Notes: generated by a model not told the origin, from the letters alone. A stretch of 64,000 bases of DNA from Patescibacteria group bacterium (GCA_040384705.1 JAZKIU010000001.1:229675-293674), one strand, 5' to 3'. Shown: positions 7,801-59,836, counted from the first letter of the stretch. A program made the numbers and translations.

Positions 7801-8007
7801 CTCTATCTTATTCGTGATGAGGCGCTCTACGTCCTCGCTCGAGGCGCCCGGGAGGACGGTGGTGACGATACCGATAGGTATTTGTATCTCTGGAGAGGAT
7901 TCCTTCGGAATGGCGGCCGCGGCATAGGCGCCCGCAAGGATAAGCACCGCCCCCATAAGGATGGTGAAGTGGTGCTTATGGATGAAGAAGAGCCAGAACT
8001 TCGTCAT
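4879..8007 (-). CDS. RND-family efflux transporter (AcrB/HAE-like), 1042 aa
   Basis: It has 12 TM segments in two halves plus large periplasmic loops. Its length and motifs are typical of AcrB-family pumps. Confidence 0.9.
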   Translation of the reverse strand: MTKFWLFFIHKHHFTILMGAVLILAGAYAAAAIPKESSPEIQIPIGIVTTVLPGASSEDVERLITNKIEDRVLGVENVTKVTSTSGEGVSSITVEFAASADIDKSIQLLKDEVDKVSPELPTEAEDPSVTDVNFADQPIIIASIAGELTPAELTAVGTIVKDELERVPSVSSVALSGVRERQVDVIVEQSKLRQYGLSLSDVTNAIRASGVASPLGSITVDDIAYAVRLEAGLSGTEQVGNIALAGPSGSVLHVRDVAKVVDGLEDAVTHSRVSVEGAPSAPALSISVFKSRGGNVVEMGDKVKEKLKELESTTLEGTKTVISYDASEDVQHDLTELTNVGLETIALVMLMLFFTLGWRESLAAAASIPLSFLIAFIGIAASGNTINFISLFSLILAIGILVDSGIVVVEAIHTHFVENGDKEKSARAAIKEYAWPLFAGTFTTIAVFVPLFFISGIVGKYLASIPYTVIFVLLASIFVALGFVPLLSMYIIRPSLSKLEQRQEEYNKRAKEWYERVLRGILGDKKKENRFLIGISLLLVVSLALPMVGAVKVVFFPGEDSGIITVEVEKPQGTALSETDLSVREVEELLYSDARIKSFVTEVGSGSYFAQSGLSGSRAGNITVNLVDKEDRKETSAEIVDELRAKMRPITSARVTVSEPSGGPPTSAAVSVTFEGDDLIALTEAADQGARILGTIPGATNVNTSTRDDSAEFVVKLDTAKAAEQGVSPLVVADTLRTALYGAKATDIRTGDDDIEVRTRLDLNPAYRDPSETTHVTIDAVRELTVPGTRGPVPLGTIAAISYEPANTVIRHEDGTRISTLTADAATGANPIQISQAFQKQLEAEQLPEGVHLKIGGESEDVNKSFAELGLALLAGAALMLGILVLEFNSFRHSFYLLSIIPFSLIGVLFGLMLTGAALSLPSMLGVIALAGVIINHAIILMDSIARIGRSNPNQTLTDVVVAAASSRFRPIILTTVVTVVGMIPLSFASAIWGPLAVAIMFGLSFSMVLTLILIPVLYHRWPGKEVKARFAKEDEPLAPVA

Positions 8008-8014
8008 GCGTTCG

Positions 8015-9616
8015 TTACGGCGCGATGGTTACCTTCTGGCCTGCGGCGAGCCCGCGTGCGTCGGTGACGATGCGTAGCTCGAGCGGGAGGTTGGTGCGCA
8101 CCTCTATGCGGTCACCACGGACTTCGAACACCTCGACTTCGTTCGCGATGAGCGCGCCCTCTGCGTCGACGGTGAAGACGATGCGCTTGTCGCCTGAAAG
8201 CTTCACGGCCGAAAGGGGAAGGAGTGCGGGGCCTGCAGGGACGCCGACCTCTTCCTTCTTGGGTGCCTGGTTCGGGAGTGCGATACGTACCGACTGGCCG
8301 TTCACGATTCCTCCTGCGCTCGCCGCATCAACGGCAACATGCACTTCTATGAGCTTCGTGGTTGGGTCAAGCGCTGGAGCTATGGAGGTCACGATGCCGG
8401 GGATGTCGTCCTCGACGGTGACCTTGGTGCCTGCGGCAAGGAGCGCGCGGTCGTCTTCGCCCACATATGCCACTATCTCGAGCGCGCCGTTCTGGGCAAC
8501 GGTCGCGACGTGCGTGAACGCGGTGACATAGTCACCGACGCGTATAGGAAGGAAGTTCACCTGGCCGCCGATAGGAGCGCGTACCACGGTCTTCTCGAGC
8601 TGCGCCTGCGCGGCTCGGAGCCCGCCGAGCGCGGTCTTCACCGACGCGTCCGCGCTCGCGACCTCGCCGCTGCGTGAATCCGTCTGGTGGCCCGCTACCG
8701 CTTCGGCGGCCTGTGCCGCACGTAGCGCATCGCGCTCTGCCGATAGCGTCGCGAGGAGACCATCGACGTCCGCGCGAGCCGCCGCAAGGTTCGCTTTCTG
8801 GATAGCGGTCGCGCCTGAGCTAGCAGGGGCAGCGATACGGGAAAGGTCTACGAGAAAGGCTGATGTGCGGTTCGTGATACGTTCCGCCTCCGCAAGCAGC
8901 GCTTCAGGATTCTTGGTGCTTGAGGTATCGAGTGCATAGCGCCACGCCTGCATCTCATCACGACGGAGCGCGGAGAATTCACTTCGAACGCTCGCGTTGG
9001 AACCCCCCGAGATGTTAAGCACCGGACTTATGGATGTGCCGCTGAAGAAGCTCTGCGCCTCGTTCGTCAAGAGGCTATCAAGGGTCGTGTACGCGGTGCG
9101 GTACGTGTTACGCGCAGAGGTCTCCGCTTCCTCGAGGGATTCCTCGGTATTAGCTGCTTGGACCTGCGTGATGGAGCGCGCAGCGAGCGCGCTTTCGTAG
9201 GCTCCCTCGGCCTGAAGGACCGCAGCCCGCTCGCTCGAGTTCTCGAGGCTTGCGATGACATATCCAGCAGGAACGTTCCCGCCAAGCTTGGCGTTCACGC
9301 TCCGTACGGTCCCTCCTGACTGCGCGAGGACGTCTGCTTCCGTTATCGAGCGCACGGTACCGAGGATGCTGACGGAATCGCCCTGTCCTGAAAGCTCACC
9401 CACGGTCGCGAGCGTGACGGTGCGGAGTTGGTTACCAGCATCGTGCGCGCCATCCTGACGCAGGAGCGTGATGCCCGCTATGAGGAGGACAGCAAGAAGG
9501 ATCGCGAGAGCGATCTGCTGCCACTTCTTGAGGCCGCGATACCGACGCCACGAGGCAACGGAGAACGCGCGAGTCCGAAGCGCCGTACGGCGTAGAAAGT
9601 TGATGAGAGACTGCAT
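8015..9616 (-). CDS. Efflux periplasmic adaptor (HlyD-family membrane fusion protein) with a long coiled-coil
   Basis: It has an N-terminal TM anchor, an Ala/Glu-rich coiled-coil insert, and a C-terminal beta-barrel and lipoyl-like region. It lies immediately upstream of the RND gene. Confidence 0.8.
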   Translation of the reverse strand: MQSLINFLRRTALRTRAFSVASWRRYRGLKKWQQIALAILLAVLLIAGITLLRQDGAHDAGNQLRTVTLATVGELSGQGDSVSILGTVRSITEADVLAQSGGTVRSVNAKLGGNVPAGYVIASLENSSERAAVLQAEGAYESALAARSITQVQAANTEESLEEAETSARNTYRTAYTTLDSLLTNEAQSFFSGTSISPVLNISGGSNASVRSEFSALRRDEMQAWRYALDTSSTKNPEALLAEAERITNRTSAFLVDLSRIAAPASSGATAIQKANLAAARADVDGLLATLSAERDALRAAQAAEAVAGHQTDSRSGEVASADASVKTALGGLRAAQAQLEKTVVRAPIGGQVNFLPIRVGDYVTAFTHVATVAQNGALEIVAYVGEDDRALLAAGTKVTVEDDIPGIVTSIAPALDPTTKLIEVHVAVDAASAGGIVNGQSVRIALPNQAPKKEEVGVPAGPALLPLSAVKLSGDKRIVFTVDAEGALIANEVEVFEVRGDRIEVRTNLPLELRIVTDARGLAAGQKVTIAP

Positions 9617-13943: not shown

Positions 13944-16202
13944 ATGCTGGGTGCAATGAAACGGCGTATCATCGCGATCTCATTCCTGGCCGCCCTTATC
14001 GTCGCTCCGACTGCGCACGCGGCTACGACCGAGGAGTTGCTCTCCCTCATACATACGCTGCAGGCGGAGCTTTCTGCGCTTACAGCCAAGATAGCCACTA
14101 CGATTACGCCGCCTGTCATCACTCGCACGCTCGATGTTGGTGCGGAAGGAGCGGACGTAGTCGCGCTCCAGGCATACCTCAAGGCGCTCGGCTTCTATAC
14201 GCACCCGACAACGACGGGCTTCTTCGGTCCGGTCACGCAAGCGGCGGTCACTGCATACCAGCAAGCCAACGGACTTCCGGGGGTCGGCGCAGTCGGGCCA
14301 CTCACCATGGCGAAGCTAGCTGGAGTATCGCCAACTCCTCCGCCACCCGCGAATTACGTAGCTGATGCTCCGACGAAGAAGCCTGCTTCACGAGATCGAG
14401 GACACGGCGGGTCTGCTGCGGAGGAAACACCTATTCCTGTTACTCTCGCCACTCTCACACTTTCCGCTTCCACCATTGTCGAGAACAGTCCGGCGGACAC
14501 GGTCGTCGGTACGCTCCAGGGCACCACTACCGGCTCGACTCTTTCCCTCACCGACACGGCAGGCGGTCGCTTTAAGGTTGTGGGCGACGTCGTCATGACG
14601 GACTCGACCGTGACTGACTATGAGACGACGGCCTCGCACAACATCACCGTCCGCGAAACATACGCAGGCGCGACCAATACGCCGCTCGATACCATTCTCT
14701 CTATTACCGTCACGAACACTGCGGAGGGAACCCTTTCGGCGCTCACACTTTCCGCTGCAACGGTGCCTGAGAATAGCGCGGCCGATACGGTGGTGGGAAC
14801 CCTGCAAGGCACTACTACGGGCTCGACCCTCTCTCTCACCGACTCCGCGACCGGCCGCTTCAAGCTGGTAGCGGGAGTCATCTTGACTGATTCCGTCGCT
14901 ACCAATTACGAGAGCGCGACTTCACACAGTATTACCGTCCGTGAGACCTATGCGGAGGCCGCCAATTCACCACGCGATACCATACTCGCTATCACCGTTA
15001 CGAATGTCGCGGAAGGGACGCTCTCGGCTCTCACTCTTTCTGCTTCCACTATCGCGGAGAACAGCCCAGCGGACACGGTCGTCGGAACGCTCCAGAGCAC
15101 GACCACCGGCTCCACCCTCTCTCTCACTGACACTGCGAGCGGCCGCTTCAAGCTCGTCGGTGGGGTCATCCTTGCTGACTCTGTCGCTACCGACTATGAA
15201 GGTGCGACTTCCCACAACATCACTGTTCGTGAGACATATGCAGAAGCCTCCAACTCACCGCGCGATACCACGCTTGCCATCAGCGTGACCGATGTATACG
15301 AAGCAACCTCGGCCGCTCGCTGGCGCGTGCGTGTGTATGGCGCTCAAGGGCTCGATGGAACCACCGGAGCCGGGGCGCACTCGATTGCCGAACTGAAGTT
15401 CATGACGAGCGCAGGCGCAGGTGCGCAACCAACCACTGGTACTCCTATTTCAAGCAACGATGGCGGAGGCGGGGCAAAGGCTAATGCATTCGATGGCTCG
15501 AACTCGACGTATTGGTACGACGGCGCTAACGCTGACTCATGGCTCGGCTATACCTTCGACAGCGCAGTCGCCATCACCCACGTCAGCATGACCTCGCGCG
15601 ATTCGTTCTATCAGACCCCGAAGACATTCTTCGTTGAATATTCCACGAACGGCGGCTCGAGCTGGAATACGGCAGCGTACATCGTGTCGTCGAACTGGAC
15701 GGCAGCGGCCCAGACCAAGGTCGTATCGCTCGCAACCGCCTACCCAAGCAATGACCTGTCGGCGCTCGATGAGCCGGGCGGCTACCGCTATTGGGCAATA
15801 AAGGCGAAGAGCCCGGGTTCGTACGCTGGAAGCTTCAACGCGAATCAGACGGACATCCTGCTCAAGAGGAATGGCACGAGTATCGGGCCTGACCAGCATG
15901 CCAATCGTGGGCTCAATGCGACGGTGGTGAACTCGACGCCATTCAATAACGTCACCGGCGACAACTATTGGTACTTCGGCGCAGCAGACCAGTACGTGAT
16001 GGTCGACTTCGGGTACAAGCGCGTCGTCGACCAGGTGGGTGTGCTCGTGCGCAGCGGTTTCCCATCCCAAGCACTCCGGTACTACGAGGTATGGGCGGGC
16101 AACAGTGCCTTCACGCTCGCTTCCATGTCGCTCATCACGACCGTGGACGATAATACTGGTACGCCAACGGGAGGAACCGCGCATCTCTTCAGTATTCCTT
16201 AA
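13944..16202 (+). CDS. Secreted surface protein. It has a signal peptide, a PG_binding_1-like domain, three tandem 96-aa cadherin-like repeats, and two C-terminal F5/8 type C (discoidin)-like domains.
   Basis: The signal peptide is followed by ALQAYLKALGFYTHPTTTGFFGPVTQAAVTAYQQANGLPGVG, which is the peptidoglycan-binding motif. The repeat region is near-identical. The C-terminus has a carbohydrate-binding-like beta-sandwich. Confidence 0.8.
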   Translation: MLGAMKRRIIAISFLAALIVAPTAHAATTEELLSLIHTLQAELSALTAKIATTITPPVITRTLDVGAEGADVVALQAYLKALGFYTHPTTTGFFGPVTQAAVTAYQQANGLPGVGAVGPLTMAKLAGVSPTPPPPANYVADAPTKKPASRDRGHGGSAAEETPIPVTLATLTLSASTIVENSPADTVVGTLQGTTTGSTLSLTDTAGGRFKVVGDVVMTDSTVTDYETTASHNITVRETYAGATNTPLDTILSITVTNTAEGTLSALTLSAATVPENSAADTVVGTLQGTTTGSTLSLTDSATGRFKLVAGVILTDSVATNYESATSHSITVRETYAEAANSPRDTILAITVTNVAEGTLSALTLSASTIAENSPADTVVGTLQSTTTGSTLSLTDTASGRFKLVGGVILADSVATDYEGATSHNITVRETYAEASNSPRDTTLAISVTDVYEATSAARWRVRVYGAQGLDGTTGAGAHSIAELKFMTSAGAGAQPTTGTPISSNDGGGGAKANAFDGSNSTYWYDGANADSWLGYTFDSAVAITHVSMTSRDSFYQTPKTFFVEYSTNGGSSWNTAAYIVSSNWTAAAQTKVVSLATAYPSNDLSALDEPGGYRYWAIKAKSPGSYAGSFNANQTDILLKRNGTSIGPDQHANRGLNATVVNSTPFNNVTGDNYWYFGAADQYVMVDFGYKRVVDQVGVLVRSGFPSQALRYYEVWAGNSAFTLASMSLITTVDDNTGTPTGGTAHLFSIP
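14440..15305 (+). repeat. Three tandem copies of a 288-nt (96-aa) in-frame repeat inside the surface protein gene
   Basis: The motif ctcacactttccgct recurs at 14454 and 14742 with a 288-nt period. The protein repeat TLSASTIVENSPADTVVGTLQGTTTGSTLSLTD... recurs three times. Confidence 0.8.
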
Positions 16203-48103: not shown

Positions 48104-48188
48104 GGAGGCGTCGGATAGCGGTTTATTCCACCACCTTGGAAAGGTGGCATATCGAAAGGTATCGAGAGTTCGAATCTCTCCGCCTCCG
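48104..48188 (+). tRNA. tRNA-Ser with a GGA anticodon and a long variable arm. No CCA is encoded.
   Basis: The acceptor stem is GGAGGCG/CGCCTCC. The anticodon stem CCACC/GGTGG encloses the loop TTGGAAA. The variable arm is 17 nt. The T-arm is GAGAG-TTCGAAT-CTCTC, and the discriminator base is G. Confidence 0.85.
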
Positions 48189-48258
48189 CTACAATCGTTT
48201 TCTTCATACCCACCCACCGGCATAATTCCTGGCGGGTCTGAATGTATACTTCCCATAT

Positions 48259-48891
48259 ATGGGCACGCTTCCTCATGGCGCACGATATGCTGTCGTATTG
48301 CTTGCGGCCTGCGCTATCATGCTCGCTGCGTTCGCGCTCGTGAACGCGGAAGACAGTGTCTTCGGCGAGCACGTCACAAGCCCTCGCCCGACGGTGACTT
48401 CCGCCCTTGTCGTCTCTGCGGGCTCAAGAAGCATCGAGGTAATAGAAGCCGAAGGGACTGACGAATCGGTACTGATCGTCGTGCGTATACTCGCGGACAC
48501 GGTGATATTCGCTGGCAGGGATACGGTTGAATCGGACGCGCTCGCGCAAGGGCAGCGTATCCAGATCCGCGGCACCAGGACGGAGAGTGGGATAGACGCA
48601 AGCATGATACGAATAGTCACCCTCGGAGAGGTCGAGATCGACGAGGAAGAAGTGCAGCCACTGCTCGCGGAAGAAATCGTGCCGGAGACCGTGCAGCCGG
48701 AGCCGGTTCCTGAACCCGCGCCGCCGCTCGAGTCGTCAGCCCCTCCTGCACCTGAGCCGCTCCCACCTGTGGAAGAGCCTGTCGAGGAGGAGGTGCCCGC
48801 GCCGGAACCGGAAGAGCCTCTGCCCGACGAAATAGAGCAGATGCCCGTGGTAGAACCCGCGCCGCCCGAGGGTGAGCAGCCCGAAGCATGA
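48259..48891 (+). CDS. Secreted or anchored protein with a Pro/Glu-rich C-terminal region. It is the first gene of the giant-surface-protein cluster.
   Basis: It has a signal or anchor sequence and a PEPVPEPAPP low-complexity tail. Its stop overlaps the next start (ATGA). Confidence 0.55.
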   Translation: MGTLPHGARYAVVLLAACAIMLAAFALVNAEDSVFGEHVTSPRPTVTSALVVSAGSRSIEVIEAEGTDESVLIVVRILADTVIFAGRDTVESDALAQGQRIQIRGTRTESGIDASMIRIVTLGEVEIDEEEVQPLLAEEIVPETVQPEPVPEPAPPLESSAPPAPEPLPPVEEPVEEEVPAPEPEEPLPDEIEQMPVVEPAPPEGEQPEA

Positions 48892-51800
48892 TGCGGACCG
48901 CGTATACCTCGCGCGTGCGATTCTTGGCAGCGCTCGTCCTGATGACTTTGGTCGTCATCGTCCTCTATCAGGCACTTACCGCACGCGCATTCTCGTCCGG
49001 TGCGGGTACCTGGGACGATCCGTACGTCGTCACTACCTGTGCGGAGCTCGAGAGCATAGGCTCCACGGCCGCCAACCGTCATGCGAATTACGTGCTCGGC
49101 AACGATATTGATTGCTCCAGCATCCCGAGCTACACGCCGATAGGTACTGCCAATAGCCCGTTCACCGGCCGCTTCGACGGCGCAGGGTACACCATCTCGC
49201 ACCTGACCGCAGGCAGCGCGTTCGCATCGTACGTCGGTGTATTCGGGCATGTATACGGCGGCGTCGTGCGGAACGTGCATGTGGATGACGCTGATATCCT
49301 CGGCGAGGATCATTTGGGCGCGGTCGTTGGGCAGCTGAACGCCGGTATGATCCTTGGGGTGCGGGTCACGAACTCCGCCATAGTCGTGAACGACGGACCT
49401 CGCGCAGGCGGCATCGTCGGGAACGCGACCGAATCCTATCTCAATACCGTCTCGGCGACCGGCACGAGCATAACGCTCACCAATGACACCGGGAGCAACA
49501 GCGGCATCGGCGGCATCGCGGGCGATGCGGATTTCACCAATATCACGAACGCGTATTCCGATGCGACCATCGCCGCTACCGGTGCGACCTTGGTCGGCGG
49601 CATCGTCGGCGGCTCGGCGCGCAACGTCGAGATCTCCGATTCCTATTTCGTCGGTACGGTAACCGGCACGAGCCTCGTGGGCGGTATTCTCGGGGGCGCA
49701 TCCACGGCATCAGCACCCATCACCGTGCGTTCATCGTATTTCTCCGGGGCCGCGACCGGCACCGCAGTTACGGCTATAGTGGGAGGCCTTGTCGGCAGCA
49801 TATCCGCTTCCGCATCCTTGATACAGGACTCCTTCTCGACTGGTGCGGTGTCGACAAGCACGAACGCCGGCGGCATCGTCGGCAGCTCGAACACCGCGGC
49901 GGCGAACTTCAGCAATCTCGTGTACTCCCGTGTCGGCACGACACGCTCGCGTTGCGAAGGGAACTCGCTGCCTTTAGGTGACGCTACCTATACATCCGGC
50001 CAATGCACCTTCCAGGATACGGACTCTTATTACAACAGCAGCAGCAATGCCCCGCTCTCGTCCTGGAACTTCACCGACATCTGGGAAACGGTCCCATCGA
50101 ACCGTCCGATACTCCGTGCATTCCCCTTCGTGGAGGCGACCTCCTATACATCAGTCGGCTCATGCGCCGCGCTGTCCGCAGCGCTACTCGACAATGCGAA
50201 CGGCTGGTACAGCCTCACAGGCGACATAGACTGCGCAGGAGATACCGCGCTCGCGCCCTTCGCCAGCACCTCGAGCAAGGCGTTCACGGGCAGACTCGAC
50301 GGGAACGGGCACACCATCGATGGCGTTTCGTACACCACAAGCGCTTCGGGGAACCATTATGGACTCTTCATAGCGGCATTCGGTGCTATCTTCGAGGACT
50401 TCACGCTTGCTGGTACCGGTATCGTTGCGGAGAACAAGACGGAAGTCGGCGGGCTCGCCGGCATCGGGAGCGGCAGCGTACTGCTGGGCGTGCATAGTAC
50501 GGTCCCGGTCGAGACCGGTTCGGGCGGCGACTACGTCATCGGCGGCCTGGTGGGCCAAGGCGGCGGGCTCATCATCGAGGACTCGAGCGTGAATGCCGAC
50601 GTGACGACCGACGGCTTCGGGTACGCGATAGGCGGGTTGGTCGGATTCGCCAACTATCTCCATGTAACGGACAGCCAGTACCTTGGGGGCACGGTTCGGG
50701 GCGGCGATACGGTCGGCGGCATCGTCGGGTTCGCGTCGGCCGTCTATATGGACTCGGTCGCAAGCGCGGGCACCATCACTGGCTCTTCCTATATGGGAGG
50801 CCTTGGAGGCGACGTGCTCGGGCCCTCTACCATCTCGAACTCGTCCTCGACGGCCAGCATCGTCGGGAACACCGACTACGATACCTTCTTCGGGAATATC
50901 GGCGGGCTGGTCGGGAGTGCATTCGATATCGCGTTCCTTAATGTCGTCTCGCAGAACCTCATAGATATCAGTGTCGGCGACGGAGCGGAAAGCGTCGGCG
51001 GCATCGCGGGGGTGATCGATAGCAGCGGATATACGATGACGAACGCGACCTCGACCGCAACCTTCGTCATTGCGGGGGACGCGGGCTCGTTCTGGGGGAG
51101 TATCGGCGGGCTTGTCGGCGGATCCTCCGGCCATACCTATAGCAATCTCTATGCCTCCACCACTATCGAAGTAGCAACGGCGCTCGCGCCTGCCGCTACC
51201 ATCGAGTCCATCGGCCTCATTCTCGGACTGAGCGATGGGGATACCATGGCCAGCAGCTCGGCTCTTGGAGCGATCGTGCTCCATGGCAATACGGCGAGCG
51301 GCGTCCTCAGCGATATTGGCGGCTTGGTCGGATCGATGAACGGATTCGACCACGCCGAGAACTTCGTTACGGCGGACATCGATATCACCGGCTTCAATGT
51401 ATCGAATATCGGCGGATACGCAGGCTCCGCATATGGCATCGGCTCCACACTCACGACTTCGTACGCCACGACCACCGTCACCATCCTTTCCTCGACGCCG
51501 AGCAGTATCGGCGGGTTCTTCGGGGATTTCACCAGCGCGGGGATAACGGAAACGTTCGCTCTGGGCTCGCTCGATATAACGGCCGGGCAAGGAGGCACGG
51601 GCCATGGCACACGCACAGGCGGCTTCGTCGGGAGCGCGTCGGGCGGCACGTTCGAGAACGTATACACTGCCGTGGATATATCGCTTACGGAGAATACTGC
51701 TTCTGGGAATGGCTCATCGTTCGGCGGCTTCGTCGGGTATCTCGCAGGGCTCGTCACGCTCGATAACGTGTACGCTTCGGGCGATCTTATATTCACGGCT

Positions 51801-54329
51801 TCCGGAGGCTCGACCGTTAACAGAATCGGTGGCCTCCTCGGAGAGTCTGCGGCCGCTACGAACGCCATATCGAATAGTTTCAGCGCAGGTGCGGTCACGC
51901 CGATAATCGGCTCGCTCCAGGTCGGTGGGTTCTTGGGCTTGCATAACGGCAGCGAGACGCTTGATAATAATCACTATGACGTCACGCGTTCGGGACAGGC
52001 CTTCTGTACGCAGACTGATGAAGCCTGGTGCACAGGCGACAACGTGGGCTCGGCGGACTCCGACTATTTCTATGATGATGCGAACGAGCCGATGGCGAGC
52101 TGGGACTTCAGTGCCGTCTGGGATTCCCACGATGATACGCATCCGACGTTCGAGTACTTCGCTTCCCTGTTCGGTCCAGGCGCAGAGGACGGAGGGGGAG
52201 CGACCGCGCCCACGATGACGGCCAGTGCCGCGTCCGCGGTCACGGATACCACGGCGACGCTTAACGGGAACATCACTGCCGTCGGTTCCGCGACACCGAC
52301 CGCTCGTGGCTTTGAGTACGGCCTCACGACCGCGTACGGCGCGACGACGACGGAAGCAGGGAGCTTCTCGACCGGAGCGTACACCGCATCCGCGTCGAGT
52401 CTCACATGCAATACCGCGTATCATTTCCGCTCGTACGCGACGAGCGCGGACGGCACCGGCTACAGCGCTGACGACACATTTACGACGAGCGCGTGCACAG
52501 GAGGCGGAGGCGGTGGAGGGAACGGTAGCGGCAGGAGGGAGATAGAGCCGCCCGTCATCTCGAACGTGAGGAGTACCATCACAGACGGAAGCGTCCGGAT
52601 AACGTGGGACACGGATACTCCCGCGTCGACGCAGATAGTATACGGACCGACGCAGTGCCTCGGCCTTTCGACCCCGGAATCCAATACGGGCACGAGCCGT
52701 ACGACCAAGCATGTGGTCGTGCTTCCGACGTTCGCCTGCAGGAACAGTGCCCACTTCTCCGCGCTGTCGGTAGACGCGCATGGGAACAGGAGCGTTTCCC
52801 CCGGACATTCCAATAATCTATTGCTGTGCCCAGCGTTCTCTCCGCCGCCGAGCCCCTCGCTTCTTAGTTGTCCCTATCCGCAGCCAGCTGTGCCTGTGCC
52901 AACTCCAGTGCCAGTAGCGCCCGCGCCCGCGATAAGCAGTCCTGTAGTGGAGATTCCAATCCCGCCCGCAAGCGAAATCGAACCGACGGTCATCGTCAAC
53001 GGAGGGAATCCAATTACGAACGATCCGATAGTGGGTGTACAGGTAACGCCTCCGGCAGGCACGGTCGCCTTCGTACTCTTCGATGCCGAAGATCCCTCCC
53101 ATACGGTATCGGTGCCGGTAGCCGTCGGAACCGTGGTCGTGGACCAGGAATGGGAGCTCTGCACCAATGCTTCAGCGTGTACGGGCGGGGAGCACACGCT
53201 CGCAGTATTCTTCATCGACGCGAGTGGGGCGGAATCGACCGTGATACGCCGCACCGTTACGCTCGTGAGCGGGAGGGAAGAACCGACAGCTATTTCCGCT
53301 GGCACTGAAGGAGATTCGATATTCACGCGGATAGCGGCAGGCATTGAGCGCATACTGACGGATGGCTCCCGAGCAGTCGCTCCTGTCCTCGCCTTGCTAC
53401 CTGCGGCGGGTATCGCCACGAGCGCGCTTGGAATCATCTGGGCCCTCGCTTCGCGGCTGCGTTCGCTTAGCGATATACCGATGCTTGCATATCGCGCGTT
53501 CGCTACGATATTCGGGTTCGGGTACCTGCGCAGGCGTGACAGGGCGTGGGGAACCGTGTACGACAGCCGGACGCGCCGCCCGCTCGACCCTGCGGTCGTC
53601 ACCCTGCATGACGCATCCGGGAAGGATATGAAGACGGTCATCACTGATCTCGACGGACGATTCGCCTTCCTGGCAGATGCAGGCACGTATTCCATCACCG
53701 CCGCGAAGGGCCATCATTCATTCCCTGCGCAGAACCTTCCCGCTATCGATCCGCTCTATCCATACCCATACACGGGCGGACCGATACCGGTGGGAGAGGA
53801 GGGCGTCATCGTGAAGGATATCCCACTCGACCCGGTCGATTTCGACTGGAACGAGTACGAGAAATACCGCCGCGGCCTCTACCGGTTCTTCTCCCGCTTC
53901 GACCGTCCGCTCGCGTACGCCGCCCTCATCCTCACCCCGCTCGGCGCGCTCATTTCGCTCGTTGCTGCGGTCCTCGAGCCATCGGTCATCAATATCGTGT
54001 TCCTCTTCCTCTATGCGCTCATCGGGCTCCTCTATTACGTCGCCGGGTTCGCTCCTCGCGTCTACGGCATGCTGCTTGACGCCACTGGGCAGCCGCTCGC
54101 GTTCGCCGTCGTGAAGGCGTTCCGTCCGGGTGCGACCTCGACCGGCATCCATGTGGTGGCTGACCATCTCGGCCGCTACTACCTCCTCCTGCCGCGCGAA
54201 AGCGAGTTCGATATCCAAGTGGAGATGCGTGCTGGCGAAGAAGCGTATACGCCCGTCTTCCGCGAGCGACTCACGGGATTGAAGGGGCACCTCAATCGTC
54301 ACATCCGCGTACCGCTCGATTTACCGTAG
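48888..54329 (+). CDS. Giant 1813-aa surface protein with many GLUG-type glycine-rich repeats, an Fn3/PKD-like domain, a poly-Gly linker, and C-terminal TM helices flanking two carboxypeptidase-regulatory-like (CarboxypepD_reg) domains
   Basis: It has a signal peptide and repeated IGGLVG, VGGIVG and AGGIVG motifs. PPVISNVRSTITDGSVRITWDTDTPASTQIVYGP reads as Fn3-like. GTVYDSRTRRPLDPAVVTLHDASGKDMKTVITDLDGRFAF reads as CarboxypepD_reg-like. Confidence 0.8.
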   Translation: MMRTAYTSRVRFLAALVLMTLVVIVLYQALTARAFSSGAGTWDDPYVVTTCAELESIGSTAANRHANYVLGNDIDCSSIPSYTPIGTANSPFTGRFDGAGYTISHLTAGSAFASYVGVFGHVYGGVVRNVHVDDADILGEDHLGAVVGQLNAGMILGVRVTNSAIVVNDGPRAGGIVGNATESYLNTVSATGTSITLTNDTGSNSGIGGIAGDADFTNITNAYSDATIAATGATLVGGIVGGSARNVEISDSYFVGTVTGTSLVGGILGGASTASAPITVRSSYFSGAATGTAVTAIVGGLVGSISASASLIQDSFSTGAVSTSTNAGGIVGSSNTAAANFSNLVYSRVGTTRSRCEGNSLPLGDATYTSGQCTFQDTDSYYNSSSNAPLSSWNFTDIWETVPSNRPILRAFPFVEATSYTSVGSCAALSAALLDNANGWYSLTGDIDCAGDTALAPFASTSSKAFTGRLDGNGHTIDGVSYTTSASGNHYGLFIAAFGAIFEDFTLAGTGIVAENKTEVGGLAGIGSGSVLLGVHSTVPVETGSGGDYVIGGLVGQGGGLIIEDSSVNADVTTDGFGYAIGGLVGFANYLHVTDSQYLGGTVRGGDTVGGIVGFASAVYMDSVASAGTITGSSYMGGLGGDVLGPSTISNSSSTASIVGNTDYDTFFGNIGGLVGSAFDIAFLNVVSQNLIDISVGDGAESVGGIAGVIDSSGYTMTNATSTATFVIAGDAGSFWGSIGGLVGGSSGHTYSNLYASTTIEVATALAPAATIESIGLILGLSDGDTMASSSALGAIVLHGNTASGVLSDIGGLVGSMNGFDHAENFVTADIDITGFNVSNIGGYAGSAYGIGSTLTTSYATTTVTILSSTPSSIGGFFGDFTSAGITETFALGSLDITAGQGGTGHGTRTGGFVGSASGGTFENVYTAVDISLTENTASGNGSSFGGFVGYLAGLVTLDNVYASGDLIFTASGGSTVNRIGGLLGESAAATNAISNSFSAGAVTPIIGSLQVGGFLGLHNGSETLDNNHYDVTRSGQAFCTQTDEAWCTGDNVGSADSDYFYDDANEPMASWDFSAVWDSHDDTHPTFEYFASLFGPGAEDGGGATAPTMTASAASAVTDTTATLNGNITAVGSATPTARGFEYGLTTAYGATTTEAGSFSTGAYTASASSLTCNTAYHFRSYATSADGTGYSADDTFTTSACTGGGGGGGNGSGRREIEPPVISNVRSTITDGSVRITWDTDTPASTQIVYGPTQCLGLSTPESNTGTSRTTKHVVVLPTFACRNSAHFSALSVDAHGNRSVSPGHSNNLLLCPAFSPPPSPSLLSCPYPQPAVPVPTPVPVAPAPAISSPVVEIPIPPASEIEPTVIVNGGNPITNDPIVGVQVTPPAGTVAFVLFDAEDPSHTVSVPVAVGTVVVDQEWELCTNASACTGGEHTLAVFFIDASGAESTVIRRTVTLVSGREEPTAISAGTEGDSIFTRIAAGIERILTDGSRAVAPVLALLPAAGIATSALGIIWALASRLRSLSDIPMLAYRAFATIFGFGYLRRRDRAWGTVYDSRTRRPLDPAVVTLHDASGKDMKTVITDLDGRFAFLADAGTYSITAAKGHHSFPAQNLPAIDPLYPYPYTGGPIPVGEEGVIVKDIPLDPVDFDWNEYEKYRRGLYRFFSRFDRPLAYAALILTPLGALISLVAAVLEPSVINIVFLFLYALIGLLYYVAGFAPRVYGMLLDATGQPLAFAVVKAFRPGATSTGIHVVADHLGRYYLLLPRESEFDIQVEMRAGEEAYTPVFRERLTGLKGHLNRHIRVPLDLP

Positions 54330-54520
54330 AGAATTTATCCACAGGTTGTCAACAGTTTTGGACTTCATTGACGCCTCATATACCGAGTGCCACAATTCAT
54401 CACAGGTACACATGGTACGGCGTCCATGCATAATGGATGCGGTGAAGTTCGGCGCGATGGGCTCGCGCAACAGGATTTTTATCAAGCGTTACGCAGACGT
54501 GCGCACTTAATCCATTACCC

Positions 54521-57500
54521 ATGAAAAAGAATGATGCTCGTATGACGGCACTCCGCAAGTCTCTTGCGGTATTTAATGCTGGTCTCCTCATGTTCGCGCT
54601 CGTCGCGATCAATTCCCCTCTCATTGCCATCGCACAGACGACGGACGTCACTCCTGCAGTCGAGCCCGTCGAGGAGGTAGTGCCAGAGACAGAAGAATCG
54701 ATACTGCCGCCTGCGGACGATATCGTCCCACCAGCAGACGATGTGGCACTCGTGCCGCCCGAAGAAGGCGTCGTTCCTCCTCAGGAGGAAGTCCCTCCGG
54801 TAGTAGAGGAGACGGTAGAACCGGTACTTGAACGTGCCGCCGAAGTGCTAGAGGAGGCCGTCCTCATAGACGAAGGGCCTCAGTGCATCATTCTGAGCGA
54901 CACGACGACGCTCGAGGGAGGCGACGCATCTGTCGAGGTATCGCCCTTGAACGCGGGTTGGACCGCGGTAGTCGACGTGCTTGCGAAGTGGATATGGGGC
55001 GAGAACCCTGTCGCTGACCCGATCAACGACGTCACCGAGGTATTCACCAAGACTTTCTCCATCACGGATGACTCGTCGGGGGGTACGCTCATCGTCGCAG
55101 CCGATAACTCGTATACCGTCATGCTCGACGGCAACCCTATCGGGAACCCGAACGATTCCGACGACGAGGATAACTACCATGCCGGGAAGGAGGACACGAT
55201 AGCCATTTCCGCTGCGGCGCTCGGAGCGGGAAGTCACACGCTCACCTTCACGGTGAAGAACTGGGGGCAGGCGAATGGAACCGCTGCGAAGAATCCTGCA
55301 GGACTCAAGTACAAGCTCACCATCGATGAGACGGACTGCGGAACGCCTCCTCCGCCACGCGAGCAGTGCGTGCTCGTGAGCGATACGACGACGCTCGAGG
55401 GTGGTACCGCATCTGCGCTCGTCACGTTCATTCATAATTCGTGGACCGCGCTCATCCAGAGCGCCTCCTGGATATGGGGCGAGGACCCAGCGACCGATAC
55501 GGCCGCGGGCAAGACTGAGATCTTCACCAAGACGTTCTGGCTTGATGGGGCAGTCGCAAGCTCGACGCTCCTCATCGCGGCCGATAACGGCTATACCGTG
55601 GAGCTGAACGGTGTAGAAGTGGGTGCAGACCCGCAGGAGAAGAACTACACCGCGGCAGGGCAGGACGTCATCACGATCGATGCGGGCGACTTCAACGTCG
55701 GCGCCAATACGCTCGTGTTCACCGTCGATAACTTCCCGCTCGCCAACGGAACCTCGCAGACCAACCCGGGTGGCCTCCTCTACAGGCTCACCATCGACGG
55801 GACGGAGTGCGATGACGTACCGCCCGCGCAAGAGACCGCGACGGTGTACATCATGAAGTACCTCAAGACCGCCAACGGCACAGAGCAGGTACTCGATGGC
55901 TCCGGCGCGCCCGCATTCCCGATGACCGCGTCATGGAATGCGACTAATATAGGCGCGGGCTCCGGAGGCTACACGCTCACCGCACCGACCTATGGCGCGA
56001 CCACGTCCGCTATGTCGTCTCCCGCAGACTACACGACGTCCGAAGTCACCGACGGAAGCGTCGTGCTCCCGGCCAATACGCCCGACGAGCAATGCACGCC
56101 AGGGAAGTACCGCCTAGTCGGCTACAAGTCCGGATTCACCCTTACTGACGCCCAGAATGCAGCGGTGAGCGCGACCGCCCCGGTATACACCGACATCACC
56201 TCCGACCGCTACATCATCGTGGTGAACGAGGATTGCGACGAACTGAACGAGGACCCGGACCCTACGACCCTCCAGGTGCATATCTACAAGCATCTCAAGG
56301 ATGAGCAGTCGACGGGGCAGGTTTCGAACGGAGCGAACGTGCCTGACTTCCCTATGACCGCTACCTGGACGACCGCGAACCTCAACGGAGGGGCGACGAC
56401 GAGCGGCGCGTACGTGCTCGGGAACAGCCATGGAGGAGCGACCTTCGAGCACGCGGCCAATACTTCGCCTATGCAAGCTCCCGCTGACTACACCACCTCC
56501 GAAGTCACGGACGGTTCGGTTGTCATCGCGAACGGCCAGCAGTGCGTCGCGGACAAGTACCGTCTCGTCGGCTACAAGTGGGGAACCACGTACGCGGAAG
56601 CTGTCGCGACCACGACGGTAACCGTGGCAGCACCTGAGTTCACCGACCTAACGAGCGACCGCTACGTCATCGTCGTGAACGAGGATTGTGATGATGTTCT
56701 GGACGACGGGGAGCCGACCGGTCCCGACGAGCAGACCATCGTCATCACCGGCAATACGTCGGGAGGCGAGAACCAGCTCGGTTGGTTGTTCAATCGCGAT
56801 ACCAACACCCAGTCACCGTACGCCTTCCAGGCGGGTAACGCAGCGACCGGTACGGGCAGTCTCTACGTGTCCCCGATAACGAACACGATAAACGGGAACA
56901 ACGATAAGTTCATCGGTGAGCTCTTCCTCCAGGAACAGATAGCCGATATCGATAGCATCTCGTACGACTTCAAGATCGGTACCCCGGACAGCACCGTAGA
57001 AGAGCAGTTCTACATGAGCGTCTACGCGAACTTCGGCGAGTCGAGCCCGACCAAGTTCTACGATTGCCGCTACAACGTCGTTCCTTCGACCGGTTCGACC
57101 GGAGGCTTCACGACGGTCACCTTCGACCCATCGCAGGTCTATGGAGTAACCCAGCACGGCACTTCCCCTCATCCTTGCCCTGCAACGCCATCCGGCATGG
57201 ATGCGCTCACCACCGGCTCCTCGACCATTCGCGTGATCGCGTTGAACGTAGGGGACACTACCGGAAGCGATACTGGTGTCAGCGGGTACCTCGACAAGGT
57301 GATAGTCGCGCTGAACGATCTCATCACTACGTATGACTTCGAGCCGGCACCAATTGTTCCGGGTAACGATGGCGACAATAACCGTAGCGGTGGAGGTGGA
57401 GGTGGGGGCGGAGGCTCCAGTTCCTCGGCAGCGCGAACCGGCTCGGTGCTCGGTGCGACAACCGACGCGGTCTGCAGCGCGCTCCTCTCGACCTTCATGA

Positions 57501-57790
57501 GGATGGGAACGACGAACGATGCGACCGAGGTTCTTGAGCTCCAAGGCTTCCTCAACGAGCACATGGGAGCAGGACTGCCCCTCACCGGCTTCTTCGGAGC
57601 CATGACGGACGCGGCGGTGCACGCCTTCCAGAAGAAGCACTGGGAAGATGTGCTCAAGCCATGGTTCCCATATCCTGCTGAGGGTATCCATGATGCGGAC
57701 GATTCCACGGGCTACGTGTACAAGACGACGCAGTGGAAGATAAACGACATCTACTGCCCGGACATAGCGCCGTTCCCACCGCTCCCGTAA
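54521..57790 (+). CDS. Large 1089-aa secreted repeat protein ending in a PG_binding_1 peptidoglycan-binding domain
   Basis: It has a signal peptide, two paired roughly 150-aa repeat types (C..LSDTTTLEGG...WIWGE and ...YRLVGYK...), a poly-Gly linker, and a C-terminal LELQGFLNEHMGAGLPLTGFFGAMTDAAVHAFQKKH. Confidence 0.8.
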   Translation: MKKNDARMTALRKSLAVFNAGLLMFALVAINSPLIAIAQTTDVTPAVEPVEEVVPETEESILPPADDIVPPADDVALVPPEEGVVPPQEEVPPVVEETVEPVLERAAEVLEEAVLIDEGPQCIILSDTTTLEGGDASVEVSPLNAGWTAVVDVLAKWIWGENPVADPINDVTEVFTKTFSITDDSSGGTLIVAADNSYTVMLDGNPIGNPNDSDDEDNYHAGKEDTIAISAAALGAGSHTLTFTVKNWGQANGTAAKNPAGLKYKLTIDETDCGTPPPPREQCVLVSDTTTLEGGTASALVTFIHNSWTALIQSASWIWGEDPATDTAAGKTEIFTKTFWLDGAVASSTLLIAADNGYTVELNGVEVGADPQEKNYTAAGQDVITIDAGDFNVGANTLVFTVDNFPLANGTSQTNPGGLLYRLTIDGTECDDVPPAQETATVYIMKYLKTANGTEQVLDGSGAPAFPMTASWNATNIGAGSGGYTLTAPTYGATTSAMSSPADYTTSEVTDGSVVLPANTPDEQCTPGKYRLVGYKSGFTLTDAQNAAVSATAPVYTDITSDRYIIVVNEDCDELNEDPDPTTLQVHIYKHLKDEQSTGQVSNGANVPDFPMTATWTTANLNGGATTSGAYVLGNSHGGATFEHAANTSPMQAPADYTTSEVTDGSVVIANGQQCVADKYRLVGYKWGTTYAEAVATTTVTVAAPEFTDLTSDRYVIVVNEDCDDVLDDGEPTGPDEQTIVITGNTSGGENQLGWLFNRDTNTQSPYAFQAGNAATGTGSLYVSPITNTINGNNDKFIGELFLQEQIADIDSISYDFKIGTPDSTVEEQFYMSVYANFGESSPTKFYDCRYNVVPSTGSTGGFTTVTFDPSQVYGVTQHGTSPHPCPATPSGMDALTTGSSTIRVIALNVGDTTGSDTGVSGYLDKVIVALNDLITTYDFEPAPIVPGNDGDNNRSGGGGGGGGGSSSSAARTGSVLGATTDAVCSALLSTFMRMGTTNDATEVLELQGFLNEHMGAGLPLTGFFGAMTDAAVHAFQKKHWEDVLKPWFPYPAEGIHDADDSTGYVYKTTQWKINDIYCPDIAPFPPLP

Positions 57791-57814
57791 TCGGGCGGTA
57801 GAAGGAATGCACAA

Positions 57815-57842
57815 GGCCCCGCTTGCGGGGTCTTGTCGTATC
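57815..57842 (+). terminator. Rho-independent terminator
   Basis: GGCCCCGCTTGCGGGGTC with a T-rich tail. Confidence 0.6.
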
Positions 57843-57866
57843 TAAAACGAATGGTAAAATAATTCC

Positions 57867-58859
57867 GTGAAAAGGAAGCACCTCCATCCTGCCCATCGTG
57901 TGTTCAGCGTCGTCGGCATGACGCTCGTGACCCTGTTCGCGGTCGCGCTCCTCGGCGCCACCGCGTTCTACGCACGCACCATGCTCACCTCGGACAACAT
58001 GGCCGCGGTCATCTCCGCCGTCCTTGTCGACCTTACCAACGAGGACCGCAAGGACGAGGACCTCGGTACGCTCACGAGGAACTCTGTTCTCGACGCAGCC
58101 GCGCAAGCGAAGGCGGACGATATGGCGGAGAAAGGATACTTCGCGCACAACTCGCCTGACGGGAAGACCTCCTGGCACTGGTTCCGGGAAGCGGGGTATT
58201 CCTTCTCGTACGCGGGCGAGAATCTCGCGGTCGACTTCGATGACTCGGATGATGTCGAGGAGGCATGGATGGACTCGCCGACGCACCGTGCGAACATACT
58301 CAACGGCAAGTTCACGGAGATAGGCATAGCGACGGCGGTAGGGACATACAAGGGGCAGAAGACGACGTTCGTCGTGCAGATGTTCGGGACCCCGGCAAAG
58401 ACGACGGCTGCCGCTCCGGTAGTGTCGGTAACTGAGCCGACAGCCGCGGAGGATATTGCCATAGGTACCACCGAGGTGCTCGGAGAGGCGGCGGGGGAGC
58501 CAGAGCAAGCCGTGGCTGCTGAGAAAACGGAAGTCGCGCCCGCAGCTTCTATACGGAACGAGAACGTGGAGGCTCCACCGGTAGTCACGCAAGCGGACGC
58601 TCCCTCATACGCTTCTACGCTCGGGCACTTCGCCGCGTCTCCCAAGATGCTGCTGCGAACGCTCTACGTGCTGAGTGCCCTGCTGCTTCTCGCGCTCCTC
58701 GTTCTGGTGACCCGCCTCGAGCTCAAGCGCCATCATGCGCCGCACGTGCTCGCCGCGAGCTTCCTCATCGTGATGATGACCGGGCTCTTCGTGGCGGCGG
58801 ATAGGTATGTGTTTAATTCTCCGACCATAGGCGCAGGCTCGGACGAGCCGCTCGGATAG
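57867..58859 (+). CDS. CAP/SCP (YkwD-like) domain secreted protein with an N-terminal anchor and a C-terminal TM helix
   Basis: The CAP signature region is YFAHNSPDG...GENLAV...WMDSPTHRANILNGKFTEIGIATAVG. Confidence 0.75.
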   Translation: MKRKHLHPAHRVFSVVGMTLVTLFAVALLGATAFYARTMLTSDNMAAVISAVLVDLTNEDRKDEDLGTLTRNSVLDAAAQAKADDMAEKGYFAHNSPDGKTSWHWFREAGYSFSYAGENLAVDFDDSDDVEEAWMDSPTHRANILNGKFTEIGIATAVGTYKGQKTTFVVQMFGTPAKTTAAAPVVSVTEPTAAEDIAIGTTEVLGEAAGEPEQAVAAEKTEVAPAASIRNENVEAPPVVTQADAPSYASTLGHFAASPKMLLRTLYVLSALLLLALLVLVTRLELKRHHAPHVLAASFLIVMMTGLFVAADRYVFNSPTIGAGSDEPLG

Positions 58860-58861
58860 CT

Positions 58862-59338
58862 ATGCGTACCCGGCTCCTCATCGCTGCGCTCGCTCTCGTC
58901 ATCGTCGTACTCGCCGCGCTGCTTATCTATACCCGTGCCCACGCGCCCGCTGAGTCGGTCGTCGCAGATACGGTAGTCAGCAAGGCGGAAGCGCTTCCGG
59001 GCGAGATAGAGGTCGTGGATACGCAGGAGAAGCGAATGCTTGGACTCTCGGGAAGAAAGGATATCGCGGACGACTACGGCATGCTTTTCGTATTCGACGC
59101 GGCAGGGAAGCACGGGTTCTGGATGAAGGACATGCTCTTCACTATCGATATCGTCTGGCTTTCCGATGATGGCACGATCGTGCACGTCGAGCATTCGGTC
59201 CCTCCTTCCAGCTACCCAAGCGTGCTCGTTACGCCGGTGCCCGCTTCGTTCGCACTTGAGACCAATGCTGGATATGCGAAGGAACATGGATGGGATACCG
59301 GCACAAAGCTCGACATCTCCAAGTACCAGTCCAATTGA
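58862..59338 (+). CDS. DUF192 (COG1430) family protein
   Basis: EVVDTQEKRMLGLSGRKDIADDYGMLFVF...DMLFTIDIVWLSDDGTIVHVEH is typical of DUF192. It has a signal or anchor sequence. Confidence 0.75.
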   Translation: MRTRLLIAALALVIVVLAALLIYTRAHAPAESVVADTVVSKAEALPGEIEVVDTQEKRMLGLSGRKDIADDYGMLFVFDAAGKHGFWMKDMLFTIDIVWLSDDGTIVHVEHSVPPSSYPSVLVTPVPASFALETNAGYAKEHGWDTGTKLDISKYQSN

Positions 59339-59366: not shown

Positions 59367-59706
59367 ATGTATAGCGGACCCGGGCCATAAGCCGAATTCT
59401 GTACTCGTGTCTCCACGAGCGATGACCATCTATCTGGGACTATCGTTACCGATAGCCTCGAGCGGCGCTCCCCGAAGGGCACGGCCTTGCACAGTGGTAA
59501 GGATTTAGCCGTTTCAATCCCGCATCTCGGCGGGCCTGGCCCCGAAGGGCCTCCTTGGCTTTCGCCGCGGACGTCTCTGTTCGCACCTCGCGCCTTGCGG
59601 CGGACGGGCGTTACCCGCTACCGTGCTGCCGCACGAATGCGGCCTGTGTTCGGACTTTCCTCTACGCACCTTGCGGTACGCAGCGATCATCAGACCCGGG
59701 TCCAGA
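59365..59706 (-). ncRNA. rnpB: RNase P RNA, bacterial type A
   Basis: The minus strand carries P4 elements GAGGAAAGUCCG and ACAGAAUUCGGCUUAU. It also has GGGUAACGCCCG (P8/P9-like) and GUGCGAACAGAGA. P1 pairs GGACCCGGGUC with GGCCCGGGUCC. The length is about 340 nt. Confidence 0.85.
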
Positions 59707-59709
59707 TGG

Positions 59710-59738
59710 ATTATACGACACTATGACTTTTCCACAAC
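59710..59738 (-). promoter_or_regulatory. rnpB promoter (minus strand: -35 TTGTGG, 17-nt spacer, -10 TATAAT)
   Basis: The consensus -10 hexamer sits 7 nt upstream of the P1 5' end. Confidence 0.6.
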
Positions 59739-59836
59739 CAGCTTACTTCATGAAGCGCTCGTCCCCAGCCGCGGGCGCTGAGCGAAGCCTTCCGAGCTAT
59801 AATCAGTCCATTAGTAGGGCTGTGTAATAGGAAACC

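Follow-up and report, generated by a model that had tools for sequence, protein, structure and literature searches.

Do the five co-directional genes at positions 48259–59338 of a 64,000-nt stretch of Patescibacteria group bacterium DNA (GCA_040384705.1 JAZKIU010000001.1:229675-293674; this whole stretch is called the window below) encode one cell-surface machine, and how is the largest of their products, a giant protein of 1813 residues, held on the cell? An earlier note on this sequence had read the block as a single apparatus made by a small-genome bacterium. The host assignment agrees with the NCBI label: the block lies on a 640,007-bp contig of a metagenome-assembled genome (MAG) labelled "Patescibacteria group bacterium", a member of the candidate phyla radiation (CPR). 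As to the apparatus, the best explanation of the data is that the block is a variable surface-protein locus between htpX/tRNA-Ser and rnpB, and not one five-gene machine. For the giant protein we favor, as the likelier reading, a beta-helical adhesin that evolves fast and is mounted on a membrane anchor of a modular, phylum-specific type.

The giant protein consists of a head predicted to be exported, a putative stalk, and a C-terminal module with four predicted transmembrane (TM) helices, encoded as follows:

48888–48995, + strand: predicted signal peptide (residues 1–36; Arg-containing n-region, hydrophobic core, TARA-FS boundary; from sequence and hydropathy)
48996–50123, + strand: GLUG-type beta-helix unit 1 (residues 37–412; G.GT..DPY cap, 6 GGxxG turns, W.F..W end cap; aligns with units of P0010)
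50124–52163, + strand: GLUG-type beta-helix unit 2 (residues 413–1092; 15 GGxxG turns; aligns with P0010)
52164–52517, + strand: Fn3-like domain a (Fn3a, residues 1093–1210; homology to modules of P0015 and P0022)
52518–52553, + strand: poly-Gly linker (by composition)
52554–52823, + strand: Fn3-like domain b, tentative (residues 1223–1312; Pur_ac_phosph_N match at E = 1.2)
52824–53273, + strand: Pro-rich linker (residues 1313–1372, 32% Pro) and beta-rich region (residues 1373–1462), by composition
53367–54326, + strand: C-terminal module (residues 1494–1813, about 320 residues; conservation, profile, AlphaFold2)
53385–53528, + strand: TM1–TM2 hairpin (residues 1500–1547; conserved Pro and Arg in TM2; hydropathy, alignment, AlphaFold2)
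53550–53834, + strand: beta-sandwich 1 (residues 1555–1649; CarboxypepD_reg/transthyretin-like; RPWGTVYDS.T..PLDPA, ITDLDGR, IPLDP..FDWNE)
53910–54044, + strand: TM3–TM4 hairpin (residues 1675–1719; Lys/Arg-rich amphipathic helix before it; conserved Asn and Tyr in TM4)
54066–54275, + strand: beta-sandwich 2 (residues 1727–1796; AlphaFold2; CarboxypepD_reg at 21.5 bits, below threshold)

The earlier note had pointed to an unusual C-terminus in which TM helices flank two carboxypeptidase-regulatory-like domains. Hydropathy and AlphaFold2 both support this arrangement. The family label holds for sandwich 1, on which CarboxypepD_reg (PF13620) scores 43–54 bits against a cutoff of 32.3; for sandwich 2 the match is weak, although AlphaFold2 shows two sandwiches. 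The model was computed from an alignment of 81 sequences and reached a mean predicted local distance difference test (pLDDT) score of 82.8, superseding a run on 7 sequences with a mean pLDDT of 54.8. It contains, in order, helices at 24–42 and 50–63, a sandwich at 76–170, a short helix, helices at 193–217 and 221–238, and a sandwich at 248–317. Both sandwiches best match extracellular stalk domains, namely the transthyretin-like domain of carboxypeptidase D, CnaB2, SdrD-B, UafA, pilins, and SlaB. We found no solved structure matching the whole module and no model of the whole module in Pfam or NCBIfam; none of the NCBIfam sorting-signal models scores on it, and we found no description of it in the literature. 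As far as checked, the module is apparently undescribed.

The family motifs RPWGTVYDS.TK.PLDPA, ITDLDGRYGF, IPLDP..FDWNEF.K, and GRYY.LVP are found in the giant protein, and a profile built from 178 module members scores 358 bits on residues 1477–1814. Among five close family members the module is 58–68% identical, versus 36–46% for the beta-helices, and it is still 30% identical in the distant member P0009. The corresponding values for Fn3a are 64–78% and 50%. The module and Fn3a are the two best-conserved parts of the giant protein.

A search with residues 1480–1813 against 1.84 billion cluster representatives matched 3446 clusters at E ≤ 1e-3, 2306 at E ≤ 1e-10, and 630 at E ≤ 1e-30. The match ends 30 residues or less from the C-terminus in 221 of the 226 proteins retrieved, and the module-bearing proteins span 211–3020 residues. 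Named carriers belong to Nomurabacteria, Paceibacterota, Parcubacteria, and similar groups. Species-representative genomes contain at least 468 module loci, nearly all labelled Patescibacteria, and at least five MAGs hold two module loci each. Long members fuse the module to heads that include NHL propellers (7 of 34), fn3, VWA, cadherin, Big_13, and GLUG domains; short members show transthyretin-like Pfam matches only, which come from the module itself. An N-terminal hydrophobic segment is present in 70 of 80 genomic members. A metagenome scan for close relatives of the module returned distant members only (≤40% identity), apart from two 68-residue fragments at 48%, and so contributed nothing further on synteny. 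The module, with its four TM helices and two sandwiches, is a cassette found across the phylum and strictly at the C-terminus, carried by thousands of Patescibacteria proteins; the earlier note had missed this property.

The head of the giant protein had been described as packed with GLUG repeats, followed by an Fn3 domain and a poly-Gly linker. Neither Pfam Glug nor M26_N matches the giant protein even at E ≤ 10, and Glug does not match the excised domains either. Despite the missing Pfam match, the GLUG assignment appears essentially right, because homologs of the giant protein carry Pfam Glug and Peptidase_M26_N, the alignment to P0010 (M26 family/GLUG motif-containing) has an E value of 4e-45 pairwise (3.4e-164 in the database search), 21 GG[ILF]xG motifs occur in two capped units with a consecutive spacing within units of mostly 27–36 residues, and unit 2 weakly matches the beta-helix of the IgA1 protease 7UVK. 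The Glug matches in the relatives P0002–P0004 are only faint, and in P0122 Glug scores 25.7 bits on the whole protein (cutoff 20.5) with no single stretch passing alone. Identity among family members is 37–46% in unit 1 and 33–42% in unit 2, the fastest-evolving part of the giant protein.

The Fn3 label found no direct support from hidden Markov models (HMMs): the fn3 HMM (PF00041) matches neither residues 1093–1210 nor residues 1223–1312, also when these are scanned alone. The label would stand by homology only, to fn3/Pur_ac_phosph_N proteins, of which P0015 and P0022 contain modules 44–48% identical to Fn3a. The poly-Gly linker is present, as is a Pro-rich one, and residues 1313–1462 have no Pfam match. 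All 16 Cys residues of the giant protein fall in the ectodomain. None of the five block proteins ends in an LPXTG sorting signal; LPxTG-like strings are internal only (LPAAG inside TM1 of the giant protein and LPLTG inside the PG_binding_1 motif of the 1089-residue protein encoded by the next gene).

Directly upstream, the first gene of the block encodes a 210-residue protein that is anchored by an N-terminal TM segment and continues through a small beta domain into a Pro/Glu-rich tail of some 90 residues. The beta domain is weakly DUF5666-like (15–17 bits, Pfam); among the small proteins of relatives, DUF5666 reaches only 14–17 bits in two of five, and this similarity stays a lead. The two genes are joined by an ATGA stop/start overlap, as the earlier note had claimed.

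Based on these features we propose the following scheme. The small and giant genes are probably translationally coupled through their overlapping stop and start codons. The giant protein would be exported by way of its N-terminal signal peptide. Two GLUG-type beta-helix units, homologous to the non-catalytic repeats of surface proteins of the M26/IgA1-protease type and of other GLUG proteins, and devoid of the protease domain, would form its tip, and a stalk of Fn3-like domains and the Pro-rich linker would span the cell wall. The module of about 320 residues (TM hairpin, transthyretin/CnaB-like sandwich, TM hairpin, sandwich 2) would hold the protein in the cytoplasmic membrane, and may be a phylum-specific base, or anchor, on which adhesive heads of unrelated types are mounted. 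The beta-helix tip, which evolves fast, would recognize a ligand on a partner cell or in the environment. The remaining three genes, for the 1089-residue protein, a CAP protein, and a DUF192 protein, are neighboring envelope genes that are probably transcribed separately.

Several points weigh against this scheme. We infer the adhesive role from domain types only, and the signal peptides were judged by eye and hydropathy only. The module model has a predicted template modeling (pTM) score of 0.56, which corresponds to moderate inter-domain confidence. The module is also conserved far beyond the needs of a passive anchor: some of its motifs are invariant, and its TM helices contain conserved Arg, Asn, and Tyr residues; the conserved Pro and Arg of TM2, the conserved Asn and Tyr of TM4, and the invariant motifs suggest that it does more than anchor passively. 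Finally, the distribution of charged residues in the module contradicts the topology implied by its helix count. By the positive-inside rule, Lys/Arg-rich flanks tend to face the cytoplasm. Across the 178 members, the mean number of Lys and Arg residues is 4.0 after TM2, 5.1 before TM3, and 3.2 after TM4, versus 0.14 in the TM1–TM2 loop and 0.28 in the TM3–TM4 loop. Because about 12 of these residues flank the sandwiches and about 0.4 lie in the two short loops, the charge pattern predicts cytoplasmic sandwiches.

This very strong charge bias speaks for the alternative that ranks next to our preferred reading in likelihood. It states that both sandwiches are cytoplasmic, that TM2 is re-entrant or the topology is otherwise unusual, and that the module couples an external adhesin to the cell interior for signaling, force, or docking. 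The short TM2 (a 14-residue helix in the model) with its conserved Arg and Pro would fit such a topology. On the other hand, the module contains four clearly hydrophobic helices, and because an exported head precedes this even number, the sandwiches are predicted to be external. The fold, which best matches extracellular stalk domains, also favors the outside, and no cytoplasmic partner domain is evident. On balance we consider an external location of the sandwiches probable. A cytoplasmic location, and with it a role in coupling to the interior, is a possibility to be taken seriously but a distinctly less likely one.

What else could explain the conservation of the module? Many Paceibacterota genomes contain a module gene in the order M50–module gene–rpsL. 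Among 123 module genes in the fetched loci, a gene for an M50 site-2-protease-like protein (about 210 residues, consensus HEVAHG ... PPLDG) lies directly upstream of 27 and rpsL directly downstream of 28; both neighbors are present at 16 and neither at 84. Loci of this type include L011, L013, L016, L018, L020, L028, L049, L052, L065, and L066 (module gene at about position 6001). The positional core orthologs (loci L009–L132) are mostly about 560–700 residues long and consist of a signal peptide, three GYAW.EN.GWI.F repeats, a Cys/Asp-rich stretch (DDDGDGLID-like), a Pro/Thr/Glu-rich spacer, and the module. No Pfam family is reported for their N-terminal 250–350 residues or so. From this layout it follows that the giant protein of the window is a paralog of the core orthologs with an expanded head.

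The M50 gene may stand next to the module gene because protease and anchor are functionally linked, or simply because gene order is conserved. With a functional link, the module could be a sorting or processing domain that is cut by a membrane-embedded metalloprotease, so that the head is released or passed to the wall or S-layer in a sortase- or rhombosortase-like manner. Such a function would account for a conservation well above anchoring needs and for the M50 neighbors, and the small and giant genes of the window, of L001–L003, and of L089 do lie just downstream of htpX, which encodes an M48 protease. However, the M50/rpsL adjacency may be the housekeeping gene order of one positional ortholog. 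Most module genes have neither neighbor, and LemA and HtpX commonly form a pair by themselves. We identified no cleavage motif, and there is no M50 gene within the window. Processing of the module in this way is, in our view, unlikely. More broadly, the module may define a phylum-wide anchoring or sorting system for surface proteins, in which it is processed by a protease (with M50 as the candidate) and/or its sandwiches are cytoplasmic and couple adhesins to the interior. The two versions are not exclusive, and we offer this proposal as a tentative one that is more probably wrong than right.

The question of whether the five genes act together requires a closer look at the block and its boundaries:

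48104–48189, + strand: tRNA-Ser(GGA) (ARAGORN); 5' boundary of the block, between htpX and the small gene
48259–48891, + strand: small partner protein, 210 residues (sequence, hydropathy)
48888–54329, + strand: giant surface protein, 1813 residues, MES2994736.1 (open reading frame (ORF) scan, homology search)
54521–57790, + strand: wall-associated protein, 1089 residues, MES2994737.1 (internal repeats, homologs)
57867–58859, + strand: CAP/YkwD-like membrane protein, 330 residues from GTG (Pfam, TM hydropathy)
58862–59338, + strand: DUF192 (COG1430) protein, 158 residues (Pfam, 101 bits)
59372–59703, − strand: RNase P RNA, class A (Rfam RF00010, 120 bits); 3' boundary of the block

The five co-directional ORFs on the + strand were found where the earlier note had placed them, and NCBI annotates the same proteins (MES2994735-MES2994739). 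At a GC content of about 60%, the calculated probability that a frame of 1813 codons stays open by chance is near 1e-26. Further out, the block is flanked by GroEL, LemA, and HtpX upstream and by a polytopic TPR protein and MurJ downstream. The RNase P RNA occupies most of the gap of about 500 nt separating the DUF192 and TPR genes; a 90-residue ORF on the opposite strand (59555–59827) mostly overlaps this RNA and may be spurious. Within the block, gaps of 191 and 76 nt precede the 1089-residue and CAP genes, and the DUF192 gene starts 2 nt past the CAP gene. Both gaps contain promoter-like sites, in a number no higher than expected by chance.

GC content is even across the block and ranges from 55 to 64% over the whole window (1–64000), which is high for Patescibacteria, mostly AT-rich or of moderate GC content. 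A genomic island integrated at tRNA-Ser is not supported, given this even composition and the fact that the order tRNA–small gene–giant gene is kept in relatives.

Full-length homologs of the giant protein, 43–48% identical, occur in several assemblies, and the flanking LemA and HtpX of the same relatives are 80–89% identical. In L001–L003 the order is LemA (82%)–HtpX (80%)–tRNA-Ser–a 230-residue small protein–a giant of 1806 residues, followed in L001 by a 472-residue protein, a SpaA-like protein, a sortase, and another protein. L089 contains HtpX (89%), tRNA-Ser, two extra genes, a 212-residue small protein (4-nt overlap), a giant of 1613 residues, and a 1015-residue protein that is an end-to-end homolog of the 1089-residue protein (46% identity). 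The two extra genes after the tRNA encode a response regulator and a 101-residue ORF. In L004 and L090 a small protein with a TM segment and a Pro/Glu-rich composition lies directly upstream of the giant; in L004 the giant is followed by unrelated genes (a 151-residue protein, DUF2238, a release factor), and in L090 the contig ends right past it. The small proteins of L001, L004, L089, and L090 are of like composition, with the domain order permuted in two.

The tRNA-Ser(GGA) between htpX and the gene pair is kept in the window (48104–48189), L001 (3004–3092), and L089 (884–971), and gene content downstream of it is variable. In L001 (9557–15387) the lectin-like repeat and the domain of about 220 residues of the 1089-residue protein are spread over three genes beside the sortase, a distribution that points to domains having been shuffled between adjacent surface-protein genes. 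Genes for the CAP and DUF192 proteins are adjacent only in close relatives: a Hainich groundwater contig (L133, 82% identity) with the order 1089-residue homolog–CAP–DUF192–TPR–MurJ, and an independent Logan contig (L134) with giant–1089–CAP–DUF192, in which the 1089-residue protein is 100% identical. It is in diverged relatives only that the small/giant junction is found again. What is conserved is the pair of small and giant genes, present in four relative lineages (L001–L003, L004, L089, and L090), and the rest is a variable envelope-gene neighborhood.

These comparisons bear directly on the view of the earlier note that the five genes form one dedicated, co-regulated attachment apparatus. 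In favor of this view, the five genes run in one direction with little space between them, and each product is exported or membrane-anchored. Moreover, the gene next to the giant in L089 encodes a full-length homolog of the 1089-residue protein, and L133 and L134 retain the order 1089–CAP–DUF192. Yet L133 and L134 are close relatives (82–100% identity), so that the shared order says little on function; elsewhere, other genes stand downstream of the giant in L001 and L004. CAP/YkwD and DUF192 are generic families, and the promoter-like sites in the 191- and 76-nt gaps are weak evidence for separate transcription. Synteny thus holds for the small and giant genes across four diverged lineages; outside close relatives, the genes that follow them have been shuffled or have given way to others. 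A five-gene apparatus is improbable in the light of this record; the more general description of exported or membrane-anchored proteins built from adhesin-type modules did hold.

Homology to M26-family proteins and the weak match to 7UVK could also suggest that the giant protein is a secreted peptidase of the M26/IgA1-protease type. This likeness does not extend beyond the non-catalytic GLUG/M26_N repeats; the giant protein lacks HExxH over its whole length and has no match to Peptidase_M26_C (Pfam). With both of these hallmarks absent, the peptidase reading is effectively refuted and very improbable. A chimeric assembly or a collection of spurious ORFs, for which the unusual protein sizes and nothing more would speak, can be dismissed for the junctions checked, since the independent assemblies L133 and L134 reproduce them, equivalent arrangements occur in L001–L003 and L089, base composition is even, and full-length homologs exist.

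The 1089-residue protein begins with a predicted signal peptide and a Pro/Glu-rich spacer, followed by two lectin/CBM-like repeats of about 160 residues (54881–55834) and two SpaA-like repeats of about 150 residues (55787–56719); these are the two internal repeat pairs that the earlier note had recognized. The lectin/CBM-like pair is similar to the carbohydrate-binding region at the N-terminus of a rhamnosidase. The C-terminal half contains a domain of about 220 residues of no recognized type (56729–57394; residues 737–958), a poly-Gly stretch, and PG_binding_1 (57524–57640). The last of these (PF01471) scores 19.9 bits in the whole protein, below the cutoff of 23, and 24.6 bits for residues 985–1089 alone, with a match limited to positions 1–41 of the 57-position model; the label proposed for this domain is supported to that extent. 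The protein is named peptidoglycan-binding by the Prokaryotic Genome Annotation Pipeline (PGAP), and homologs carry SpaA, SpaA_4, DUF642, and PG_binding_1. A PDB sequence search with it gave no match.

The CAP protein is supported by CAP (PF00188, 68.2 bits against 21.1) and by YkwD (TIGR02909, 103.5 bits, under the subfamily cutoff of 171). The C-terminal TM anchor ascribed to it turned out to be two C-terminal helices, accompanied by one at the N-terminus. Its start is more likely ATG 57918 (M18, 313 residues) than GTG 57867, because independent gene calls give 313 and 310 residues. A promoter-like site (57833–57860) precedes this ATG. The DUF192 protein was correctly identified (PF02643, 101.5 bits against 27) and has an N-terminal TM or signal segment.

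A further protein had been counted as a sixth relative of the cluster:

13944–16202, + strand: peptidoglycan-binding protein, 752 residues (PG_binding_1, three 96-residue repeats, discoidin)

Its PG_binding_1 and one discoidin domain pass Pfam; the second discoidin is sub-threshold. The repeats, described as perfect, are 71–80% identical, with the motif ENS.ADTVVGTL ... DYE ... H.ITV, which looks cadherin-like by eye, and the gene contains no tandem repeats at the DNA level. This protein shares only a domain type with the cluster and is not specifically related to it. Elsewhere in the window (4879–9616, − strand), a full-length AcrB-type RND transporter (623 bits) adjoins an HlyD-family adaptor. 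Components of tripartite pumps are more typical of diderms; in a CPR cell, presumably a monoderm, they look out of place.

A large part of bacterial diversity belongs to the Patescibacteria, whose cultivated members live attached to other cells. To our knowledge, little is understood of how Patescibacteria anchor and display their surface proteins. Apart from the C-terminal cassette, in which its value lies, the 11-kb cluster is a variable surface-protein locus of an ordinary kind. One search with the module profile could list the surface-exposed, and probably host-contact, repertoire of any CPR genome. In those few CPR systems that are tractable, the module also gives structural and genetic studies a defined target, and since its charge distribution contradicts the simplest topology, it is a test case for membrane-topology rules. 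If the module does define an anchoring or sorting system, in either version, it would provide a handle on how epibionts build and turn over the surface that contacts their hosts.

How does the giant protein compare with known systems? Among GLUG/M26_N surface proteins, such as the pneumococcal IgA1 protease/Zmp and the large GLUG proteins of Clostridia and haloarchaea, we find the same cap (G.GT..DPY.I ... DIDL ... F.G.FDG.G..I), GGxxG turns of about 30 residues, and the W.F..W end cap. Unlike these proteins, the giant protein has no M26 catalytic domain or HExxH, the Pfam Glug model does not score on it, and its anchor is the Patescibacteria module instead of LPXTG, PGF-CTERM, S-layer-homology, or dockerin elements. 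OD1 genomes have been reported to encode proteins of >1500 residues with adhesin-like features (Nelson and Stegen 2015, PMC4508563), and the giant protein fits this group of large Parcubacteria/OD1 proteins; a text search of the article found neither the C-terminal TM/transthyretin-like module nor the paired small gene.

As a C-terminal cassette on many unrelated secreted proteins of one lineage, the module resembles the C-terminal domain of the type IX secretion system and the PEP-CTERM/exosortase, PGF-CTERM/archaeosortase, and GlyGly-CTERM/rhombosortase systems. It differs from these sorting domains in being about 10 times longer, with four TM helices and two folded domains, and its adjacency to M50 is only a lead to a cognate enzyme. 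With the CnaB/SdrD-B adhesins and pilins of Gram-positive bacteria it has the logic of head, stalk, and anchor in common: the module sandwiches superpose best on CnaB2, SdrD-B, UafA, and pilin domains, and giant genes of relatives adjoin genes for sortase and SpaA-like proteins. In contrast to LPXTG adhesins, which end in a short signal and one TM helix, the giant protein ends in a polytopic anchor of about 320 residues with sandwiches placed between TM hairpins.

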